Below, piece after piece: positions 22,439-32,494 of a stretch of 32,494 nucleotides of DNA. Below the pieces are notes generated by a model. The model was not told the DNA's origin. It worked only from the letters and a program-made list of their open reading frames with translations, and ran no database searches. How positions within the stretch are numbered: the first letter of the stretch is position 1; each line of letters opens with the position of its first letter. Origin of the DNA: Chloroflexota bacterium (GTDB lineage: Bacteria; Chloroflexota; Limnocylindria; Limnocylindrales; CSP1-4); contig JBDTOF010000392.1 in NCBI GenBank assembly GCA_039933375.1, positions 1 to 32,494 on the forward strand, read 5' to 3'. A program made the translations under genes and the position numbers.

Positions 22439-23599
22439 CTACGGTTCGGTTGCGACCTCGAGGATCCGTTCCACGTCCAGGTACCCGGCGACGAGCTCCT
22501 TGATCAACTCGATCTTGACCAGGTCCGCTGGGTGCGTCTTGACCAGCAGGTCGTGGATCTCGGATGTGACCGCGTAGGTGTCCTCGGCCACGAGCGTGGC
22601 GAAGAGATCGGCGCGCCGGATCGCGTCGATGACGGCGGGTCGCGGGCGATAGCCGCCAGTCAGGACCAGCCCGATGGCCGCCCCCTCGTGGGAATCAATG
22701 ACATCGATGAGGGCGGCTGCGGATCGTGGATCCCGGTCTTCCGGGTCCGATTCGCCGGACAGGCCCAGCTGATGGGCTGTCGTCAGGGTCAGGATCACGT
22801 CCTCGCGGTCGCCCGGCACGATGACCAGCGTCCCCGGCCCGACTCGCTCCAGCATGTGCCGGGGCTCCATCGCCCCGACCGCCACGCCGTCGATGACGCG
22901 CTCGAGATCCGGTCCCTCGTGGAGCAACTCGCCGCGAACACCCTCGAGAACCATCTCGAGGGTCGGGTTGGACAGGATCGGGCGGACGGGCAGGACGCCA
23001 AGGAGCGGGATCCGGTATGGCTCGAGACCGCGAGCAATGACCTTGGCGATGCCCGGCTGGGCATCGATGTCGACCTTGTTGACGATCGCCCCGGCCACCT
23101 CGACGCCGTGGGCCCGGAAGAGCGCCGCGTTCAGCACGATCTCGTCGATCGGGCGGCCAACTCCGCCCTCGCTGACGATCACCGTCGGCGCCCCGAGCAT
23201 CGCCGCGACCGCCGCATTGGACAAACCGATGACCGCGCCAACGCCAGCGTGTCCGGTCCCTTCGATCAGCAGGATGTCGTGATCCCGGTAGCTCTGACGG
23301 GCATCGACGATCCTTCCGCCGAGATCGTCGACGACCTGGCCCGCGATGTAGGCCTTGGTGAACCCGCGTGGGATATGGATCGGACTCATCACGCGGTAAG
23401 GCTCGGGCAGCCCGAACGTCTCGTGCATCAGGACCGCGTCTTCGTCCGCGGGCTCACCGTGGTCGATGACGGTCCGCTGGCCGACCGGCTTCATGAATCC
23501 CGCACGCAGCCCGCGCGAAATGAACCCGTCGAGGAGGCCGAGCGAGGTCGTGGTCTTACCGCGGTTCTGCCCGGTCGCGGCGAGGTACAGCTGTCGCAT
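22439..23599 (-). CDS. BioD-like P-loop plus DRTGG domain protein (Pta N-terminal region without the acetyltransferase domain)
   Basis: GQNRGKTT, FMKPVGQ, LLIEG, GAIVNK, VIVPGDREDV. Confidence 0.85.
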   Translation of the reverse strand: MRQLYLAATGQNRGKTTTSLGLLDGFISRGLRAGFMKPVGQRTVIDHGEPADEDAVLMHETFGLPEPYRVMSPIHIPRGFTKAYIAGQVVDDLGGRIVDARQSYRDHDILLIEGTGHAGVGAVIGLSNAAVAAMLGAPTVIVSEGGVGRPIDEIVLNAALFRAHGVEVAGAIVNKVDIDAQPGIAKVIARGLEPYRIPLLGVLPVRPILSNPTLEMVLEGVRGELLHEGPDLERVIDGVAVGAMEPRHMLERVGPGTLVIVPGDREDVILTLTTAHQLGLSGESDPEDRDPRSAAALIDVIDSHEGAAIGLVLTGGYRPRPAVIDAIRRADLFATLVAEDTYAVTSEIHDLLVKTHPADLVKIELIKELVAGYLDVERILEVATEP

Positions 23600-23647
23600 G
23601 GGTCAGGCGCTCAGCCGGCGGGCCTGACGAGCCGGTGCCACCGATCG

Positions 23648-24253
23648 TCAGGAACGAGCAGCGGTCTTGCGCTCGATCAGCTGCACCCCATCTCGAAGCC
23701 GGGACAGCGTGTCTGCGTCGACGGCTTCTGACTCCAGGTAGGGCCCGAGGCGATCCATCACGTCAGCAACCAGGCTGAGGAATACCACGGCGTCCGCGAC
23801 GAAGAACTGCGGCTCGTTGTTGTAGCGAACGAGCGTCAGACGGCCCTGCAGGACGCGGCGCTCCTCGACATGCGCAATCTGGGTCGCGAAATTGTGGCCC
23901 TGGATGCCATCCGGGTTGTTGAGGAAGTTCAGAGCGTTGTCGATGGCCAGACCGAATCGGGCCCGCCAGGCCACGAGGCGTTCGTGAACCTCGGGCGGGA
24001 TGCGCACCTCGGCCACTTCGTCGAACACCTCGGGCGCCACGGTGAGCAGGCCGACGAGGGTGGTGCCGGCTCGAGCGCCAAGCATGACCTGCAGGCTGCG
24101 CTCAAGGGTGAAGACCTCGGAATCGAAGCGCGGGCTCGTGATGACGTCCGTCAGGAGGTCCTCGACATTGTCGAGCGTGCCCGGTTCAACGACCGCGTTG
24201 GCCAGGTGGCTGATCTCTTCCTTGAACAGGAACTTTTCTTCGTGGTCCAGCAT
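23648..24253 (-). CDS. hypothetical protein (201 aa)
   Basis: Start reassigned to ATG 24253 from TGc-TACCAT-N7-ATG; helical N-terminal part, three-strand-plus-helix C-terminal part. Confidence 0.8.
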   Translation of the reverse strand: MLDHEEKFLFKEEISHLANAVVEPGTLDNVEDLLTDVITSPRFDSEVFTLERSLQVMLGARAGTTLVGLLTVAPEVFDEVAEVRIPPEVHERLVAWRARFGLAIDNALNFLNNPDGIQGHNFATQIAHVEERRVLQGRLTLVRYNNEPQFFVADAVVFLSLVADVMDRLGPYLESEAVDADTLSRLRDGVQLIERKTAARS

Positions 24254-24310
24254 GTCGGCGATGGTAGCACTCGATTTCGCCGGCATCCCAGTCATCGAAG
24301 GGCTGGCCGT

Positions 24311-24352
24311 GAATCAGTAGGCCCCGACCAACGACCGGGGCCTTTCTGACTC
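24311..24352 (-). terminator. hairpin downstream of gdhA
   Basis: AGGCCCCG...CGGGGCCT perfect 8-bp stem extended by GAGUCAG/CUGAUUC; no clear U-tract on the minus strand. Confidence 0.55.
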
Positions 24353-24367
24353 AGTACGTGGCGCAGA

Positions 24368-25633
24368 TCACGGGTACAGGCCGCGGAGCTGCATCACGTC
24401 CGCCACCCGCTGGACGGCGAGGAGATAGGCCGCCGTTCGCATGTCGCACTGCTCGCGCCGCGCAATGGCCAGCACGGAGACGAACGCCTTGACCATGATC
24501 TCCTTGAGCTTCTCGTTGACGATCTGCTCGCTCCAGTGGTCACGGTTGAGGTCCTGGACCCACTCGAAGTACGAGACCGTGACGCCGCCGGCGTTGCACA
24601 GGATGTCCGGGATCATGAACTTGGAGTTCTTCCAGAGAATCTTGTCGGCTTCCGGCGTCGTCGGCCCATTGGCGGCCTCGGCGATGAGGCGCGCCTTGAC
24701 GTGGGGGGCCACTTCCTTGGTGATCTGATTCTCAAGCGCGGCCGGGATCAGGATTTCACAATCGACGGTCAGGACATCGGTGCTGGAGACATCGACTGCG
24801 CCGGGGAAGCCCTGGACGGTTCCGTGCTCCTTCTTCCAGGCGATCACCCGTGCGACGTCGAGACCCGCCGGGGCGTGGATCCCGCCAGTCGAGTCGGAGA
24901 CCGCGACGACCGTCGCGCCCTCGGCCGAGATCAAGGTGGCCGCAATCGATCCGGCATTACCGAAGCCCTGAACGGCGACGCGGGACTTCGCCAGTTCCAT
25001 TCCGAGGTGCCGGGCAGCCTCCACGATGCAGTAAACGGTTCCGCGGGCAGTCGCTTCGTTGCGACCTTCAGAGCCGCCCAGGCTGATGGGCTTGCCGGTC
25101 ACCACGCCCGGCACGGTGTAGCCGGCATGCATGGAGTACGTGTCCATCATCCAGGCCATGATCTGCGAGTTGGTATTGACGTCGGGAGCGGGAATGTCCT
25201 TCTCGGGCCCGACGAGGACTTCGATCTCGGTGAAGAAGCGGCGGGTGAGCGCCTCGAGCTCCCGCATCGAGAGCTTCTTGGGGTCAACGATGACGCCGCC
25301 CTTGCCACCGCCGTATGGGATGCCGACGACGGCGCACTTCCAGGTCATCCACATGGCGAGGGCCTTGACCTCGTCGCGCGAGACGTTCTGGTGGTACCGG
25401 ATGCCGCCTTTGGCGGGTCCCCGGCCGAGGTTGTGCTGGACGCGATACCCGGTGAAGACGCGGACCGAGCCGTCATCCATGTGAACCGGGAAGTTGACGG
25501 TCAACTCCCGGCGCGGCTCGCGGAGGACGGCCCGCATGCCGTCATCGAGGCCGAGACGCTCGGCGGCGAGGTCGAATTGCTCCTTCGCCACCGTCCATGG
25601 ATTGATCTCGACGGTGGCTGATTCGGTGGTCAT
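24368..25633 (-). CDS. gdhA: glutamate dehydrogenase (Glu/Leu/Phe/Val DH family)
   Basis: YRVQH, KGGIRYH, MTWKC, GGGKGG, PAPD, VQGFGNAG, GGVTVSYFEW; ATG 25633 follows GGAGG; -10 TATACT at 25757-25762. Confidence 0.93.
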   Translation of the reverse strand: MTTESATVEINPWTVAKEQFDLAAERLGLDDGMRAVLREPRRELTVNFPVHMDDGSVRVFTGYRVQHNLGRGPAKGGIRYHQNVSRDEVKALAMWMTWKCAVVGIPYGGGKGGVIVDPKKLSMRELEALTRRFFTEIEVLVGPEKDIPAPDVNTNSQIMAWMMDTYSMHAGYTVPGVVTGKPISLGGSEGRNEATARGTVYCIVEAARHLGMELAKSRVAVQGFGNAGSIAATLISAEGATVVAVSDSTGGIHAPAGLDVARVIAWKKEHGTVQGFPGAVDVSSTDVLTVDCEILIPAALENQITKEVAPHVKARLIAEAANGPTTPEADKILWKNSKFMIPDILCNAGGVTVSYFEWVQDLNRDHWSEQIVNEKLKEIMVKAFVSVLAIARREQCDMRTAAYLLAVQRVADVMQLRGLYP

Positions 25634-25833
25634 GTGCTCGGAGTTCCTCCGGTTCGGGCCGGCGCCTACCGGCTCGATTCTGAGCCGTCTCCCGGACGAC
25701 CCCACGGTGCGCAGGCTCCCGACCAGCGGGACACCTCACGCGCGGAATGCGTTCGGAGTATAGCCGCAGGTGCCCGGGCCCGACACCGTCCGGAATCCCG
25801 GTTGTAACCGTGCCGCAACCCGGATTACGGGGG

Positions 25834-26688
25834 CTATTCGGCCCGGTACAACGCCACGGCACCAACACAGCCAGGGCCGAGGTGGGGACCGACGGACGGC
25901 CCGACGAGGTCGATGGTCACGAGGGAAGGATCAATTCCGCCGGGCACTCGCGCCACGAGAGCGTCGCGGAAGATCTCGACTTCGGCGCCAGTGGTGTGCA
26001 AGACAGAAAGTCGTTCCATGGGCCTGATCGAGACGAGGTCGATCAGGCGCTCTCGGGCCTTGCCGCGGGTCCGGACCTTATCGATGGTCTCGACCTTGCC
26101 GTCCTTGACCTCGATGATCGGCTTCATCGACAGGAGCGTCCCGATGGCCGCCTGGGCGCCGCTGATCCGTCCGCCACGCTTCAGATACTCGAGCGTGTCG
26201 AGCGCCACCATCATCACGACGTCGCTCCGGCGCGCTTCGCAGGTCCGAGCTATCTCAGCAGCCTCCGCCCCCGCCGCGGCCATCTTGACCGCAAGTTCTG
26301 CAAGGAGCCCCTCGCACATTGATGCGCCCAGGGTGTCGACGATGTGGATCTCGCGATCCGGCAACATGCCCTTCGCGATCTCGGCGCTCTTGATCGTTCC
26401 CGACAACGTCCCCGCGACGTGAATCGAGACGATGGAAGGTGCCCCGGCATCGAACGCGGCCTGATATGCGGCAAGGAAATCCCCGGGCGCCGAGGCAGCC
26501 GTCGTCGGAAATGGGGCGGCCGGCGCCGTCATCCGGGCCCAGAACTCAGTCGTGCTGAGCTCGACGCCGGCCCGGAAGCTCTCTTTGCCGAAGGTCACCT
26601 CGAGTGGCACGACGGTGATCCCGAGCGAGGCAGCGTGGGCAGGGTCAAGATCGGACGCCGAGTCCGTTACGATCGCGACGTGGCTCAC
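25834..26688 (-). CDS. DegV family fatty-acid-binding protein (FakB-like)
   Basis: IVTDSASDL, LSGT, YLKRGGRI, HLGPG; GTG 26688 follows GGAGG; -10 TATGAT at 26742-26747. Confidence 0.93.
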   Translation of the reverse strand: MSHVAIVTDSASDLDPAHAASLGITVVPLEVTFGKESFRAGVELSTTEFWARMTAPAAPFPTTAASAPGDFLAAYQAAFDAGAPSIVSIHVAGTLSGTIKSAEIAKGMLPDREIHIVDTLGASMCEGLLAELAVKMAAAGAEAAEIARTCEARRSDVVMMVALDTLEYLKRGGRISGAQAAIGTLLSMKPIIEVKDGKVETIDKVRTRGKARERLIDLVSIRPMERLSVLHTTGAEVEIFRDALVARVPGGIDPSLVTIDLVGPSVGPHLGPGCVGAVALYRAE

Positions 26689-26830
26689 TGGCGGTCCTCC
26701 GAAGGTGCCGGGCTGTCTGGCGAGCACCAGTCCTGCCGTCGATCATACGGGGCATCGAGGCCGGAGGGAACCAAAATCGGCGGAGCGCCCTGTCGCGCGA
26801 CGGGCCTGCTGAGCGGATACCCTTCCCCGC

Positions 26831-28129
26831 ATGGATCGATCCCTGAAGGCCGTATTGCTTGGGACGTTCACGCTGCGATTCAGCACCGGCCTGACCGGCG
26901 CCATGCTTGCGTTCTATCTCGCTGACCTGGCGAAGGCCGGGACCAGCGGCGTCGATGGCAAGGTCGTCGGCATGCTCGCGGCGGCATTCTTCCTGGCGGA
27001 ACTGGTCCTCTCCCCTATCTTCGGCGTGCTGGCGGATCGACTTGGGCACCACCGGGTGATGTTGTTCGGCCCGCTCTTCGGCGCGGTCGCCGTAGTCATC
27101 ACGGCCTTTACGAGCCATATCGGCATGCTGGGCGGGACGAGGGTTCTCGAAGGGGCCTCCACAGCTGCCTCGGTTCCGCCGATCCTGGGCTTCATCGCCT
27201 TCGCTACGGCAGGCGATGAGGCGCTCCGAGGCAGGGCATCCGCTCGCTTCGAGGGGGCCACGCTGTCCGGGTTGGGCGCCGGCTTCATCGTCGCTCCGCT
27301 GCTGTTCCAGACGCTCGGCCAGACGGCGTTTCTCCTGAACGCGGTCATCTACATGGGCTCATACGCGATCTACCGCTTCGGTGTGGCCGACCGCGATCAG
27401 CCCAGGCCCGAGGAGGCGGCGACCGGCCCTGCCATCGGCCGCTACCTGGCGCTGGTCAGCCACTCCCACGTCCTGCTCCTGGCTCCGACCTGGATCGCGG
27501 TCAATGCCTCCATTGGCCTGTGGTTCAGTCAGTCGCTCTTCCAGTTCTCCAAGTCGAACCCGGCGTTTCCCGGCCAGTGGCTGCTGCAGGGGTTCTCGGC
27601 CGTTCAGATCACGATCGCGGCAATCGCCATTGCGATCGTCTTCGGCGCCGGCATCCTGTGGTGGGGCAACCGGTTCGACCAGTTTCGGCGCACGACCATC
27701 ATTGCGTTCGGGGTGGCTGGTGGCCTCGGCCTCGTGGCCGCCGGACTCGTCGTGAACCATGCTGCATTCAACGCGGCCGACTCGGTGGTGTTTGGCCTCA
27801 TCGTCGTGGGCGCGGCGGTCGGGTTCGGGGCCGGCCTGTTTGTCCTGGCGGGGGCAACACCGGCGGCAGTGGGTCTTCTCGCCGACGTGAGCGAACGCTT
27901 CCCGACCGACCGTGGAGCGATCATGGGGCTGTACTCGGTCTTTCTGGCGATCGGCCAGATCACCGGCAGCCTGGTGGGCGGCGTCGTGGCCGACGCCATG
28001 GGCATGGATGGGCTGCTCCTGGCCACGGGCGCGCTCCTTCTCGTGGCGCTGGTTCCGCTCTCGAAGCTTCGAACCGTCGAGCACTACCTGGGCCCGGGCA
28101 TGCCTTCCGTCCTTGGTGAAAAGGGCTGA
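26831..28129 (+). CDS. MFS transporter
   Basis: Motif A GVLADRLGHH, about 12 TM segments, RGAIMGLYS; leaderless TACCCT-N7-ATG. Confidence 0.9.
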   Translation: MDRSLKAVLLGTFTLRFSTGLTGAMLAFYLADLAKAGTSGVDGKVVGMLAAAFFLAELVLSPIFGVLADRLGHHRVMLFGPLFGAVAVVITAFTSHIGMLGGTRVLEGASTAASVPPILGFIAFATAGDEALRGRASARFEGATLSGLGAGFIVAPLLFQTLGQTAFLLNAVIYMGSYAIYRFGVADRDQPRPEEAATGPAIGRYLALVSHSHVLLLAPTWIAVNASIGLWFSQSLFQFSKSNPAFPGQWLLQGFSAVQITIAAIAIAIVFGAGILWWGNRFDQFRRTTIIAFGVAGGLGLVAAGLVVNHAAFNAADSVVFGLIVVGAAVGFGAGLFVLAGATPAAVGLLADVSERFPTDRGAIMGLYSVFLAIGQITGSLVGGVVADAMGMDGLLLATGALLLVALVPLSKLRTVEHYLGPGMPSVLGEKG

Positions 28130-28222
28130 GGGCCGCGGTCCGGCGCCCGGTTCGGCAACTCTGAGCAGGTCGGTCCTTATGCGATACTCGATCCAACATC
28201 CAGATCACTCCCGGAGGACCCG

Positions 28223-28495
28223 GTGACCTCGAACGTCGGCCAGAGTTACCCGTACACGAGCGAGTCCGAGGCTGAGCGCTCCGCCGCGATTGCCGCCCTC
28301 ACCGCTTCGCGGGAATCCCTCGGCGGCACCCTGGCCGCTGATACGACGCCGCTCGACGAGAACGATCGCTGGTGGGTCTGGAAGTGCCCGACCTCGGGGT
28401 GCCGTGGCCTGCTCCATGCAGCCGGCTATGCTCGCGACCTCCACGCAGTCTTCGTCGTTTGCGACGGGACCTGCGCACGCACGTTTCTCCGCTGA
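28223..28495 (+). CDS. small hypothetical protein with four Cys (putative Zn ribbon)
   Basis: GGAGG RBS; WKCPTSGC...VCDGTC. Confidence 0.75.
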   Translation: MTSNVGQSYPYTSESEAERSAAIAALTASRESLGGTLAADTTPLDENDRWWVWKCPTSGCRGLLHAAGYARDLHAVFVVCDGTCARTFLR

Positions 28496-28560
28496 TCCCG
28501 CGCTCCGATCGCTGGGTTCCGCAGCTCACCGTGAGAGGCAGCCGGAAGGTGCCCGGGGTC

Positions 28561-29346
28561 GTGGCTGAGCGCGGATCCATCTTCATGGACGTCCGCGCGT
28601 CCCGGCGACGCCTCCGGATCGATGGGCTCGGGATCATCGCCTCGACGGCGGGATTTGGTCTGGTCTATGGACTGGCAGCCCGGGCCGCCGGCTTTTCGCC
28701 GATCGAGGCCAGCTCGATGTCGATCATCGTCTTTGCCGGAGCCTCACAGTTCGCCGCCGTCGGGTTTGTCCTCGGCGGGTTCTCGTGGCTGGGCGTCGTA
28801 CTGCTGACGGCGTTCCTGAATGCCAGGCACTTGCTCTACAGCGCGGCATTGTCCCCCTACCTCGCGGACCAGCCGCGGCTGGTTCGGGCGGCTATGGCGC
28901 ATGTCCTGACCGACGAGTCGTTCGCCCTTTCGATCGCCCACTTTCGGCGCATCGGGCGGGCCGACATGCCCGGCTACTGGTGGGCGGCGATCATCACCGT
29001 CTTTATCCCGTGGAACCTGTCCACGCTCGCCGGGGTGCTGATCGGGGGCCAGATCCCCGACCCGTCGCGGTTCGGACTGGACGTGATCTTTCCGGCGGCC
29101 ATGGCAGGCCTGGCCATCGGTCTCGTCACGGGTCGTCGGGAGCTGGTCGCAGCCTTGGCGGGCGCGGTGGTCGCGGTGGCGGTGGCCCTCGCCTGGGACC
29201 CGGCGGCCGGCATCCTGGCAGGTGGGCTCCTCGGTCCCCTGCTCGGAGTCGCCGTCCCGCGCGGACCGCACGAGCATCCACCCGAGGCGCTCATCGTGAC
29301 GAGACGAACGCCCACCGTCGAGTCAGACGAGATCGTGCCCGGATGA
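28561..29346 (+). CDS. azlC: AzlC family branched-chain amino acid exporter, large subunit
   Basis: VFAGASQF, LNARHLLYS, LTDESFA, GLDVIFPA; start GTG 28561 or ATG 28585. Confidence 0.9.
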   Translation: MAERGSIFMDVRASRRRLRIDGLGIIASTAGFGLVYGLAARAAGFSPIEASSMSIIVFAGASQFAAVGFVLGGFSWLGVVLLTAFLNARHLLYSAALSPYLADQPRLVRAAMAHVLTDESFALSIAHFRRIGRADMPGYWWAAIITVFIPWNLSTLAGVLIGGQIPDPSRFGLDVIFPAAMAGLAIGLVTGRRELVAALAGAVVAVAVALAWDPAAGILAGGLLGPLLGVAVPRGPHEHPPEALIVTRRTPTVESDEIVPG

Positions 29347-29675
29347 GCACGCAGCTGATCTGGCTCGCCATCCTGATGGCAGGGGCGACCTATCCGTGGC
29401 GAGCCGTCCCTCTGCTCGTTCCAGGCATTCAGCGACTACCCGGCGTCGCCCGGGAATACCTCCGCCTTGTCGGTCCCGCGGTGCTAGCCGCCCTGGCAAT
29501 CGTCAATACCGTGGTTACCGTCGGCGCGGCTCGTAATCCGTCGTTGCATGTCGGCATCGAGTGGCTCGCGGTCGGCCTGTGCGTCCTCATTGTCGTCGCC
29601 CGGCGTGGCCTGTTGCTCGGCCTCGTGGGTGCCGCTGCCCTCGCAGCGCTGGCCCGCGCCTCTGGACTGGCCTAG
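29343..29675 (+). CDS. azlD: AzlD family small subunit
   Basis: ATGA overlap with azlC; TYPWRAVP and LVGPAVLAAL; 110 aa, hydrophobic. Confidence 0.85.
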   Translation: MSTQLIWLAILMAGATYPWRAVPLLVPGIQRLPGVAREYLRLVGPAVLAALAIVNTVVTVGAARNPSLHVGIEWLAVGLCVLIVVARRGLLLGLVGAAALAALARASGLA

Positions 29676-29713
29676 ACCGCCGACTCAGAAGCGGACCGCG
29701 TCAACTCGATCTC

Positions 29714-30985
29714 CTAGACGGTGTCGGTGGCCACTGACCGGGGCGAAGTGCGCCACGAGGCGACCATCGGATCGCGGCCCGTCGCCAGCAGGAGTCCGGC
29801 TACGAGGGTCGTCCGCGGAACGATCGAATCGACCTCCAGGTATTCGTCCGGCGAGTGATCGCGACCGCCGATCGGACCGAGACCGTCGATCGACGGCACG
29901 CCCATCCCGGATGTGGTGTTGGCATCGGAAGCGCCGCCAGTCCCAACATCGATGGTCGCGAAGCCGAGGCGTGCCGCGGTTGCGACGGCATGATCCGCCA
30001 GTCGGCCGGATCGCTCGAGCTTCTCCATCGGCAGCCAGCCTGCCATCTGCTCGACATCGACGGTCACGTCAGGTACCCCGGGGTCAGATGCGATCAGGTG
30101 GATCGCGGCGACCGCCTCCTCGAGCTCCTGGCGCGTGACCCCTCGGACATCGACCTCGAGGTGGGCGAGATCCGGGATGACGTTGGGGCGCGTTCCGGAC
30201 TGGAACACCCCGACATTGGCGGTAACGCTGGCCCATCGCCCGTTGAGCGACTGAATCCGTTCGACCATCCGGGCACCGGCGACGATGGCGTTCCGCCCTT
30301 TGTCAGGTTCCACCCCAGCGTGAGCGGCCCGCCCGTGGATGGTCAATCGGAGATCGGCGATACCCTTCCGGGACGAGACGAAGTCGCCGTTCGCTCGGGC
30401 GCATTCGAGTACGAACGCGGCGTCGGCGCGAGCCGCAATCTCGCGGATGTGCGGCGTCGAGCTGGGAGAGCCGATCTCCTCGTCCGGGTTGGCGACATAC
30501 ACGATCTCGTCGAAGGGCAGCGCATCCCAGCGACCGCCCCCGAGCGCCCGGAGCGCTCCCAGCGCGTGGATGCCGGCCAGGAGTCCGCCCTTCATGTCGG
30601 TCACGCCGGGCCCCCGGGCGATCCCGTCGTCGACCCGGAAGGGACGAAGCGCGACGGTCCCATCGGGAAAGACCGTATCCATGTGTCCGATCAGGAGGAT
30701 CCGGGGCCCTGCCCCGACCTTTCCCGAGAACGTACCGATGACTGTGTCGCCGTACCGGCCTGATGGATCAGGGCGGCGTTCCACGCTCCCGCCGAGGGTG
30801 CTGAAGGCACCCGCAACCCAGTCCGCCACCTGGTTCACTCCACTCGGCGAATAGCTCCCGCAGTCGATGCTGCAGAGTTGGGCGAGTTCGTCGAGAAACC
30901 GCGGGAGCCCTTCAGCGACGGTCTGCTCAAGCTGCTCCAACTCGGACGGTGTAACAGTGCCCGCTGGGTCGATGTTGGTGTCCAC
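29714..30985 (-). CDS. M20 metallopeptidase (glutamate carboxypeptidase/ArgE-DapE-like)
   Basis: GHMDTV, DMKGG, DEEIGS, HAG, GGASD, HSPDEY; leaderless TACACT-N6-GTG 30985; no signal peptide. Confidence 0.92.
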   Translation of the reverse strand: MDTNIDPAGTVTPSELEQLEQTVAEGLPRFLDELAQLCSIDCGSYSPSGVNQVADWVAGAFSTLGGSVERRPDPSGRYGDTVIGTFSGKVGAGPRILLIGHMDTVFPDGTVALRPFRVDDGIARGPGVTDMKGGLLAGIHALGALRALGGGRWDALPFDEIVYVANPDEEIGSPSSTPHIREIAARADAAFVLECARANGDFVSSRKGIADLRLTIHGRAAHAGVEPDKGRNAIVAGARMVERIQSLNGRWASVTANVGVFQSGTRPNVIPDLAHLEVDVRGVTRQELEEAVAAIHLIASDPGVPDVTVDVEQMAGWLPMEKLERSGRLADHAVATAARLGFATIDVGTGGASDANTTSGMGVPSIDGLGPIGGRDHSPDEYLEVDSIVPRTTLVAGLLLATGRDPMVASWRTSPRSVATDTV

Positions 30986-31059
30986 GGACAGAGTGTAGGG
31001 CCCGTCGCGCCGGAAGCGCCCGGAGGTCACACCGGCGACGCGCCCGCGGGGTAAAGCGT

Positions 31060-31068
31060 TGCTATCCT
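31060..31068 (+). promoter_or_regulatory. extended -10 (TGcTATCCT) of the CphA-like gene
   Basis: TGn-TAnnnT-N9-GTG. Confidence 0.6.
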
Positions 31069-31077
31069 CCTCGGACC

Positions 31078-32494
31078 GTGCGACTGATCGAGATCCGCCT
31101 GCTCGAAGGGCCCAGCGTCTATCGGCTCGAGCCGGTGGTCAAGGTCGAGGTGTCCCTCGGGCGCCGCCGAAGCTGGTATGGCCAACGTACGCCAGGCCAG
31201 CACGATCTGATCAAGCTTGGGGCGACGGTGCCGCGACGAGACTGGCCCGAGCCCGTCCTGACGATGGCCGGCTGGGCCCGCCGCCTGCGTTCCGAACACG
31301 GTGAGGGGGTTGGTGGAATCCGCGTCCACCGTTCATCGGACCCGGGTCACTGGATCATCACTTGGCCGTGGAGCGGTGCCGAGCGCGCCCGGATGATCGC
31401 CGAAGCCTCCGTGGCGCTGGTTGAGCGGTCTGCTACGCCGGTGCGGCGCGCGCGGCTCACGGGGTCCCAGCAACGACTTCTCGACTCCTGGTCCGACAGG
31501 ATCCAGCGCGCGAGCGCAACACCGCCAGCGTGGATCCGTGACGCGGAGCGGACGATCCCGATCGTTTCGATCTCCGGCACGAACGGGAAGTCAACGACCA
31601 CACGTCTGCTCACCCGGATCCTGCTCCGGATGGGGAGGCACGTCGGAACCACGACATCCGACGGAATTCTCGTCGACGAGCGGATGATCGATCCCGGCGA
31701 TTGGACGGGCCCGGGTGGCGCGCAGGAGATCCTGGGTCGATCGGATATCGACGTGGCGGTCCTCGAGACGGCCCGCGGGGGCCTCGTCCTCCGTGGAGCC
31801 GGCTACGAGTCGAATGAAGCGAGCATCCTGACCAACGTCACGTCCGACCATCTCGACCTCCAGGGCATCCACACCCTCCCGGAATTGGCCGAGGTCAAGG
31901 CAACGATCTGTCGGATCACGAAGCCCACGGGCTCGGTCATCCTGAACGCTGACGATCCGCTCGTCCGTGCCGTCGCCCGCCTGGTTCGCGGAACAGTCGT
32001 CCTCTTCACCCTCAGGGGCCACGCGTCGGCACCGGTCCGTCGCCACCTCGCGGTCGGCGGGCGAGCCTATATGGTCCAGCGCGGAGAGCTCGGCGAGGCG
32101 AACGGCGAGGACTGGACGCCGATCGTGCCGGTCCACGAGATCCCGATCACGATGGCCGGTCTGGCGCGCCACAACGTGGCCAATGCGCTGGCCGCGGCCG
32201 CCGGCGCTCGGGCACTGGGTGCCACGATCGAGCAAGTGCGGAGGGGTCTGCTCGACTTCCGACCGACCCAGGACGAGTCGCCGGGCAGAACCAACGTGTT
32301 CCGAAACGGCAACCGGATCGCGATCATCGATTTCGCCCACAACGAGGCTGGACTGGGCGCCATCCTCGATCTGGCTGACGGAATCGCCTCGGGTGCTGGA
32401 GGCAGGGTCACGCCCATCACGGCCATCATCGGGACGGCCGGCGATCGACCCGACGACACGCTGCGCGGCATGGGCGCGATCGCCGCCGCCCGCG
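31078..32494 (+). CDS. cyanophycin-synthetase-like Mur ligase (N + M domains, no ATP-grasp); 3' end lies outside the window
   Basis: Absent from the ORF track because there is no in-window stop. Hand translation is open for 472 codons: MRLIEIRLLEGPSVY..., ISGTNGKSTT, DWTGPGGA, AVLETARGG, TNVTSDHL, LNADD, HNVANALAA, PGRTN, DFAHN, GDRPD. Confidence 0.88.
   Translation, partial: MRLIEIRLLEGPSVYRLEPVVKVEVSLGRRRSWYGQRTPGQHDLIKLGATVPRRDWPEPVLTMAGWARRLRSEHGEGVGGIRVHRSSDPGHWIITWPWSGAERARMIAEASVALVERSATPVRRARLTGSQQRLLDSWSDRIQRASATPPAWIRDAERTIPIVSISGTNGKSTTTRLLTRILLRMGRHVGTTTSDGILVDERMIDPGDWTGPGGAQEILGRSDIDVAVLETARGGLVLRGAGYESNEASILTNVTSDHLDLQGIHTLPELAEVKATICRITKPTGSVILNADDPLVRAVARLVRGTVVLFTLRGHASAPVRRHLAVGGRAYMVQRGELGEANGEDWTPIVPVHEIPITMAGLARHNVANALAAAAGARALGATIEQVRRGLLDFRPTQDESPGRTNVFRNGNRIAIIDFAHNEAGLGAILDLADGIASGAGGRVTPITAIIGTAGDRPDDTLRGMGAIAAAR

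Follow-up and report, generated by a model that had tools for sequence, protein, structure and literature searches.

A cyanophycin synthetase-like protein in which the N and M domains are directly fused, probably an additional enzyme of cyanophycin metabolism

General features of the locus

The window analysed here is a stretch of 32,494 nucleotides and is the entire contig JBDTOF010000392.1 (C392) of a Chloroflexota genome assembly (GCA_039933375.1), which is 72% complete and consists of 439 contigs. At its right end, on the forward strand, lies an open frame (31078..32493) which has a GTG start and remains open for 472 codons up to the contig end. It encodes a relative of cyanophycin synthetase (CphA1) in which the N domain is joined straight to the Mur-ligase-type M domain, without the ATP-grasp (G) domain of about 325 aa, and we call this architecture N-M. 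The sequence-only reading of this DNA had described an open frame at 31078 with a Mur P-loop and M motifs of the CphA type, and all of these were located in the translation: GTNGKS (residues 167-172), GDWTGP (207-212), LETARGG (229-235), NVTSDHL...VK (253-274), PGRTN (402-406) and DFAHN (418-422).

Among the contigs of the same genome, the last 55 bases of C392 recur only on contig C386. Reading through from C392 into C386 gives a stop after 111 more codons, and a complete protein of 583 aa. The tail on C386 agreed with residues 455-583 of P0002, a homolog of 583 aa which is 94% identical to the window protein, at 122 of 129 positions. In a close relative, whose proteins are 93-99% identical, the same genes are found uninterrupted on one contig (L016). 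Among the short contigs of two soil runs, one contig (X2, record 10) spans the site equivalent to the window end, and none bridged the spacer between N-M and cphA. No ATP-grasp domain was found by Pfam in the window protein, in which the M domain starts at residue 158. The C386 tail, its match to P0002 and the finding that the 120 best homologs listed (546-638 aa) have no Pfam domains other than those of Mur ligases together indicate that no ATP-grasp domain lies in the C-terminus beyond the window. The proposal that N is joined to M with no ATP-grasp domain thus holds for the completed protein. Coordinates are collected in Table 1.

Table 1. Features of the N-M gene and of the divergent gene beside it (positions in the window).
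Feature	Position	Strand	Remark
N-M gene, first 472 codons	31078..32494	+	last 111 codons and stop on C386:56-390
N domain, residues 1-157	31078..31548	+	homologous to CphA1 N domain; without Cx19HxxEH
Mur-ligase central domain (Mcore of CphA)	31570..32202	+	PF08245, alignment to 7wac and 7lg5
P-loop G167-S172	31576-31593	+	within Mur-ligase central domain
D257-H258	31846-31851	+	within central domain, as are E230, K274 and N290
Start of Mur-ligase C-terminal domain (Mlid)	32284..32494	+	PF02875 at 403-471, cut by contig end; YLRGR on C386
Spacer between divergent start codons of M20 and N-M genes	31031..31077	.	47 bp
M20 metallopeptidase, carboxypeptidase-G2-like	29714..31030	-	divergent from N-M; Pfam Peptidase_M20 and M20_dimer

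Domain composition and family membership

In the window protein Pfam recognised Mur_ligase_M at residues 165-375 (2.7e-20), where PF08245 scored 73.6 bits against a cut-off of 24. The C-terminal domain PF02875 scored 21 bits in the cut window protein and 25.1 bits in P0002 (cut-off 28.4), and was passed by 14 of 16 scanned family members with 34.5-59.8 bits; the score below the cut-off in the window protein may result from truncation of the domain. The Pfam model of the CphA N domain (PF18921) gave no match at E<=1 in the window protein, and neither a CphA N-domain nor an ATP-grasp match was found at E<=0.1 in the 16 N-M members. Of the Pfam families which the sequence-only reading proposed to check, Mur_ligase_M was matched, and ATP-grasp and the N-domain model were unmatched. 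With our own hidden Markov model of the G domain, members of the three N-M clades described below also gave no match (0/6 X1, 0/24 X2 and 0/24 Y).

The match of the cyanophycin synthetase model TIGR02068 to the window protein was confined to the M part of the model (profile positions 474-783 of 862). The scores were 331.7 bits for the window protein, 355.6 bits for full-length P0002 and 332-408 bits across the N-M proteins scored, all below the cut-off of 850, and no NCBIfam model reached its cut-off for the four N-M members tested. The other Mur-type families were also distant. No N-terminal Mur domain as in MurE or MurF was found by Pfam, and TIGR01085 gave 85.1 bits against 257.3; the scores for folC (41.8 against 162.65), PgsB, also named CapB (22.2 against 222.7), and MurT (39.7 against 800) were far lower than required. 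DUF4938 covers the N region of P0226, one member of clade Y (5.1e-29, passing the Pfam cut-off), and gave no match in the clade of the window.

A word-indexed homolog search scored 8000 candidates, and 5487 of them matched at E<=0.001. The best 120 of these were 69-94% identical to the window protein and were annotated as 'Mur ligase family protein', as 'hypothetical protein' or, at JGI, as 'cyanophycin synthetase'. An exhaustive search of representatives at 50% identity gave 8436 proteins at E<=0.001, of which 1078 reached E<=1e-30; among the best 150, proteins of 530-600 aa in which M begins from residue ~150-200 were mixed with proteins of the CphA1 type of 870-894 aa. The hallmark of the N-M family is a length of about 530-600 aa, a CphA-like N domain joined straight to M, R239, A454 and Y484-LRGR. 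The window protein has R239 and A454 in the window and YLRGR on the C386 tail.

A literature search found no paper describing the N-M architecture, and the supplements of PMC3646047 and PMC10206079 may bear on it. In PMC3646047, 'cyanophycin ligase-like proteins' are named only in a supplementary figure and table, and these may include the N-M class. Matches to 'CphA3' in the literature were rejected, as they are beta-lactamases of Aeromonas.

The M domain and the predicted structure

The M domain of N-M aligned with those of CphA1 structures (PDB 7LG5, 7LGJ, 7LGQ, 7TXV, 7WAC and 7WAE) at E 8.5e-64 to 7e-61, with a Foldseek identity of 26-39%. Common to both are the P-loop, the Mg ligands, the DH pair, the conserved Lys, NxDD, DxxHN, GDR and LRGR. 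Residues K171, S172, S194 and E230 align with K499, T500, T522 and E558 of TeCphA1, which bind ATP and Mg according to PMC9427784, and D257-H258 align with D585-H586 of SuCphA1, the double Ala mutant of which was the M-dead control in PMC9262961. The catalytic positions kept in N-M are K171, S172, S194, E230, D257, H258, K274, N290, R404, H421, N422, D456 and R457; R486-G487-R488 is found on the C386 tail and in homologs. The M domain is therefore predicted to be catalytically competent.

We compared the columns of the M domain between 25 CphA1 sequences and 15 X1, 24 X2 and 24 Y sequences, leaving out nine rows nested within CphA1 clades. There were 83 columns at least 90% conserved in CphA1, and at 46 of them each of the three N-M clades had the same residue in at least 80% of its sequences. 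GD(W/M)TGP and ETARGG are common to N-M and CphA1, and MurE differs at those positions. N-M shares with MurE (e.g. 1E8C) the Mur-ligase central and C-terminal fold with the ATP site (hhalign probability 100%), but it lacks the UDP-binding N-terminal domain, GDWTGP and ETARGG stand in place of the MurE forms, and the DNPR motif has lost its D and N and reads YLR. Four positions set all N-M clades apart from CphA1: A185 and R239, together with A454 and Y484, where CphA1 has Pro and Asn, respectively.

The structure of P0002 predicted with AlphaFold2 had a mean predicted local distance difference test score of 80.8 and a predicted template modelling score of 0.77. Its best Foldseek matches in PDB were CphA1 structures (7wae, 7txv, 7lgj, 7lgq and 7lg5; E 7e-36 to 5e-34), in a comparison which the sequence-only reading had suggested. 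Three of them aligned over 603-604 columns, which is N plus M, and MurE came next at 1.4e-19.

By the Nei-Gojobori method, the ratio of nonsynonymous to synonymous substitution rates (dN/dS) between the window gene and 11 orthologs was 0.13-0.34 for the N domain and 0.07-0.31 for the M domain, with dS close to saturation in the distant pairs. N-M could be a decaying, functionless remnant of a duplicated cphA, as might be thought from one locus in which the gene lies in two overlapping frames (L142) and from a partial copy in genome G301. Such low ratios, complete frames in 76 of 80 related loci and catalytic columns that are invariant across deep clades make this extremely improbable. N-M is a large, old and uncharacterised family under purifying selection.

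The N domain

A profile of 36 N-M N-regions aligned with 17 CphA1 N domains over 155 columns (hhalign 96.8%, E 3.7e-10), which agrees with the earlier assignment of this part to the CphA N domain. The X2 region aligned with CphA1 at 97.7% over 139 columns and X1 with X2 at 98.8%; the Y region aligned with X2 at 97.4%, and with CphA1 at just 82% over 30 columns. By these alignments, the N regions of clades X2 and Y are linked to the CphA1 N domain transitively. A search of the ESM Atlas with the N domain alone gave no usable match.

Many CphA1 proteins, though not all, have a zinc site for primer generation (Cx19HxxEH) in the N domain. In agreement with the sequence-only reading, residues 1-157 of the window protein contain no Cys and no HxxEH, and the residues aligned to this stretch of CphA1 are not conserved in the N-M profile. 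A motif HRSSDPGHW at 84-92 is invariant within the window's clade. This clade also has a strongly basic N domain (median net charge +9, isoelectric point 11.3); the corresponding median charges are -2 for CphA1, -7 for X2 and -10 for Y.

Phylogenetic position

A first tree was made with FastTree from 99 M domains (70 labelled N-M, 27 labelled N-G-M and two Mur ligases of the window's own genome), after twenty rows with other architectures or fragments had been dropped. It showed two clades of N-M only: clade X with 39 rows (support 99), which includes the window's clade X1, and clade Y with 24 rows (support 96). Two rows of clade X had been wrongly labelled N-G-M, from over-extended calls of open reading frames. 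A second tree was made with a short IQ-TREE search from 62 chosen rows, with five metagenomic MurE as outgroup. CphA1 and N-M together were split from MurE with a support of 100 in the Shimodaira-Hasegawa-like approximate likelihood ratio test (SH-aLRT). This, together with the family models below their cut-offs, places the protein with CphA and not with MurE, FolC or CapB, as had been proposed. Clades X and Y had supports of 99 and 90, and X1, on a long stem, had 100; all N-M rows stood on one side of a branch, with SH-aLRT just 29.

CphA2 (PDB 7TA5 and 8FXH) is, according to PMC10273328, a reduced CphA paralog beside CphA1 and CphB which keeps the N domain. N-M shows the opposite reduction: in CphA2 the G domain is active and the M domain truncated and inactive, while N-M has no G domain and a full-length, conserved M domain. 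The mirror architecture pointed out by the sequence-only reading is therefore real, but it is no one-off, since the window protein belongs to a large old family with well-supported clades.

The M domain of the neighbouring cphA1 falls in a distant CphA1 clade. We rejected the idea that N-M arose by a recent deletion of the G domain from the neighbouring cphA, since their M domains belong to separate deep clades.

Nine proteins of 533-670 aa were nested inside CphA1 clades, and their G-domain content varies. P0247 and P0208 are plainly cphA fragments cut at the 5' end. In the cluster representatives P0238, P0268, P0182 and P0205 the N domain is followed by a stub of G, which matches no more than the first 34-58 positions of our G model, and by a full M; in P0255, between the N domain and a full M, G is reduced to its last quarter (the last 75 model positions). 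Two of the nine had no G match. The five proteins with a reduced G may be independent and more recent losses of G, or artefacts of gene calling. Should the nested proteins come from genuine genes, G-less forms would have more than one origin.

Neighbouring genes in the same genome

Downstream on C386 a cphA1 gene is convergent with N-M, its 5' end cut by the contig. It scored 1076 bits with TIGR02068 against 850, has the Pfam domains Cyanophycin_syn, ATP-grasp, Mur_ligase_M and Mur_ligase_C, and retains the Cx19HxxEH motif and all M-domain motifs. A scan of the convergent spacer on C386 found no terminators or promoters. The N-terminal fragment of a cyanophycinase lies at the end of contig C28 (4688-4987; 91.5 bits, model positions 1-100 of 250). 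C28 and C386 share no overlap, but this cphB fragment probably precedes the cphA of C386, and on L016 cphB lies directly upstream of cphA. The extension of the contig in search of cphA and cphB, suggested beforehand, thus led to a cphA1 and probably to cphB beyond it.

On the other side, the M20 peptidase gene stands head to head with N-M. Its product matched NCBIfam PRK06133 at 271.5 bits, below the cut-off of 349. The closest solved relative is carboxypeptidase G2 (1cg2, 2.4e-42), and a weak match to poly(aspartic acid) hydrolase was also found (7ljh, 7.4e-9).

Linkage to cphA and cphB across genomes

At least 594 stretches of genome contigs matched, 473 of them encoding a relative of N-M, and we compared the best 80 of these 473 loci; all were from Chloroflexota or of Limnocylindria type. 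The divergent M20 gene was present in 79 of the 80, and the remaining locus was cut at that point. Where at least 5 kb of downstream sequence was available, cphA was present in 51 of 54 loci; the other three (L033, L064 and L093) had N-M and no cphA within 6.6-10 kb downstream. The gene order GDH, DegV, MFS transporter, AzlD-like and M20 (22439-31030 in the window) was kept upstream of N-M in most of these loci (L016-L095).

A further 80 loci came from metagenomes. The search patterns also match cphA, and this sample is biased to loci that contain it. Seventeen open reading frames were read as N-M type; 12 shared a locus with cphA, nine of those 12 also with cphB, and the other five were on contigs of 2.3-5.6 kb. 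Three gene orders were seen. N-M is convergent with cphB-cphA in L096, L098, L142 and L143; it follows in an operon cphB-cphA-NM with touching or overlapping frames in L105, L114, L123, L126, L129, L131 and L147 (in L123 and L126 the contig begins inside cphA, and the operon reads cphA-NM); and in L103 it simply follows cphA. The flanking genes otherwise differ. The M20 partner was seen only in the window's clade and in L143, where the 472-bit match was kept; the other M20 matches lay on antisense frames of high-GC loci and were discarded as compositional artefacts.

Plasmids of Ruegeria sp. AD91A, Shinella zoogloeoides ATCC 19623 and Roseateles sp. XES5 (a record flagged UNVERIFIED_ORG) carry, as an operon and in this order, a cyanophycinase, cphA and a 'Mur ligase family protein' of 578-601 aa. 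All three of these N-M proteins have the catalytic motifs, ARGGILRRG and YLRGR, and two of the three have AGDR.

Co-occurrence was counted in 121 genomes of the window's own family, including G000 and the unpublished G463. An N-M N domain together with a CphA1 over the cut-off was found in 72 genomes and neither in 43, while five had N-M only and one CphA1 only; CphA1 was thus present in 72 of 77 genomes with N-M and in 1 of 44 without it. Among the five, cphA is broken into pieces at contig ends in G401 and G445 and is partial, next to N-M, in G349, and no CphA1 match was found in G301 and G485. The genome with CphA1 only (G423) is in 340 contigs. In a sample of 401 genomes of the phylum, the N-domain type of the window was found in 12 genomes, all in the window's family.

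These data bear on the acceptor of the enzyme. The sequence-only reading saw in the protein a possible isopeptide ligase for some acceptor other than a cyanophycin backbone of its own making (a polymer, a protein or a cofactor). We retain the isopeptide ligase, but with the cphA1 next door and linkage in unrelated gene arrangements, cyanophycin is a likelier acceptor than another. That N-M is a Mur-type ligase for a cell-wall precursor, a folate-like cofactor or a protein, with its place beside cphA being historical, we consider quite unlikely. The motif equivalent to DNPR, which is unlike that of CphA1, would suit this explanation, and so would the three loci without a nearby cphA and the two genomes without a CphA1 match. 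However, the linkage occurs in three gene orders and in several phyla, the carboxylate-side motifs are CphA-like and not MurE-like, the scores for FolC, PgsB and MurT fall far under their cut-offs, G301 has no more than a partial N-M, and the completeness of G485 is only 81%.

The strict co-occurrence and adjacency of the two genes would also be expected if N-M were an accessory subunit which docks on the CphA1 oligomer and adds to or regulates its M-site capacity, with little or no independent role. Contacts of the Mcore of TeCphA1 with three Gcore modules to form the tetramer, reported in PMC9427784, could offer it a place. But the fully conserved catalytic residues speak for enzyme activity and the M domains of N-M and its neighbour are distantly related, and we judge such a subunit improbable.

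Other arrangements were met in the same loci. In L142 (9437-11682) the two overlapping frames of N-M reflect a frameshift or an assembly error, and the adjoining cphA and cphB are intact. L105 (204-8680) reads in one direction through Amidohydro_1 (possibly an isoaspartyl dipeptidase), cphB, cphA, N-M and an amidase-signature protein. Eight loci (L104, L108, L109, L110, L111, L116, L124 and L127) contain tandem CphA-like pairs outside the N-M family: a gene of ~745 aa, in which N and G are accompanied by a short weak M (66-86 bits), precedes a full cphA with an N domain without HxxEH. The plasmid of Deinococcus sp. KNUC1210 (L180, NZ_CP092194.1) carries cphA followed by genes for an isoaspartyl peptidase, a cyanophycinase, a 'Mur ligase family protein' of 693 aa and a 'cyanophycin synthetase' piece of 144 aa; the last two look like a second cphA broken in two, not N-M.

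Partner synthetases

In metagenomic loci, HxxEH was present in the CphA1 partners of X-type N-M (4/4) and of Y-type N-M (6/6, with the Cys at x21), and it was also kept in the partners from Chloroflexota (50/52) and from plasmids (3/3). Among cphA genes with no N-M in the locus, 15 of 24 had it. We rejected the possibility that N-M replaces a dead M or N (primer) site of its neighbour, since the neighbour is intact, and the primer site is kept in nearly all partners.

The state of the partners also bears on whether N-M is a ligase for small substrates, which would join Arg or another amine to free Asp or a short peptide and give beta-Asp-Arg or a minimal primer. This is unlikely, though it has some appeal: (beta-Asp-Arg)-Asp is the minimal primer of CphA1 according to PMC9262961, the N-M-specific residues R239 and Y484 near the active site could fit a small substrate, and the linkage to cphA and cphB fits equally. 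Nearly all examined partners, however, keep their own primer-generating site, and a polymer-tethering N domain under purifying selection would be needless for a small substrate.

Proposed function

We consider that N-M is probably an overlooked extra enzyme of the nitrogen-storage polymer cyanophycin, and we lean, with chances only slightly better than even, to a stand-alone isopeptide ligase acting on cyanophycin chains, as the motifs and gene linkage suggest. In CphA1, N and Mcore are the parts which hold the chain end at the M site, according to PMC9427784, and a loop of the N domain touches the M domain, according to PMC9262961; N-M would therefore be a complete module for the M reaction without the polymerase. 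The chain held by the N and M domains would be cyanophycin or poly-Asp produced by the complete CphA1 next door. ATP would then phosphorylate the beta-carboxylate of an Asp without a side chain, and an amino acid, with Arg as the default amine, would be joined to it via an isopeptide bond. N-M would be unable to extend the backbone. The substrate, the chemistry and the physiological role, which may be filling, repairing or diversifying side chains, are conjectured from these comparisons.

Several points weigh against this proposal. The MurE DNPR motif reads the incoming amino acid (it binds meso-diaminopimelate), and our reasoning on the amine site of N-M is based on homology to it. In the profile alignment ED.NLRGR of CphA1 falls on SDNPR of MurE; N-M has x..YLRGR there, one residue longer and containing Y484. 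The amine pocket is therefore probably not that of CphA1, and the amine substrate may differ. Taken together, the changes at R239, A454 and YLRGR suggest an amine pocket or an acceptor geometry unlike that of CphA1. In the partner CphA1 all of the N (Cx19HxxEH), G and M sites are intact, which leaves no missing activity to complement. The predicted CphA-type fold of the N domain rests on profile homology and on full-length Foldseek alignments. The synteny in Chloroflexota extends over ~10 kb including unrelated genes, which is common descent and the history of one lineage, and the co-occurrence counts overstate the support, as a single deletion removes both neighbours at once and related genomes are not independent samples. 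Such co-occurrence shows a unit, not a mechanism.

A free-standing side-chain ligase might also remodel cyanophycin, either by installing a residue other than Arg or by working against the M20 peptidase. We regard such remodelling, in one form or the other, as possible but rather unlikely. The first form is hinted at by the changed pocket equivalent to DNPR. In the second, limited to this Chloroflexota clade, the carboxypeptidase-G2-like M20 would strip side chains and N-M would reload them on a lasting poly-Asp backbone, with the naked polyanion gripped by the basic N domain (net +9, compared with -2 for CphA1). It may also be that the M20 partner is no more than the dipeptidase of beta-Asp-Arg (an N-acyl amino acid), or else that it counteracts N-M on the polymer.

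Biological meaning

Cyanophycin metabolism is thought to require CphA1 or CphA2, CphB and a dipeptidase. Judged from its conservation and its gene neighbours, N-M would be a fourth enzyme type, widespread, conserved and apparently active, which is found with cphA and cphB in Chloroflexota, Alphaproteobacteria and other lineages. The question of its activity is directly testable in the cultured carriers Shinella zoogloeoides ATCC 19623 and Ruegeria sp. AD91A, and the protein offers a natural, separable M module for the engineering of cyanophycin-like polymers. It is also relevant to the evolutionary assembly, or break-up, of the three-domain synthetase. For the organisms that carry it, N-M points to an unrecognised step in the use of this polymer, which may be completion, repair, diversification or turnover of the side chains.

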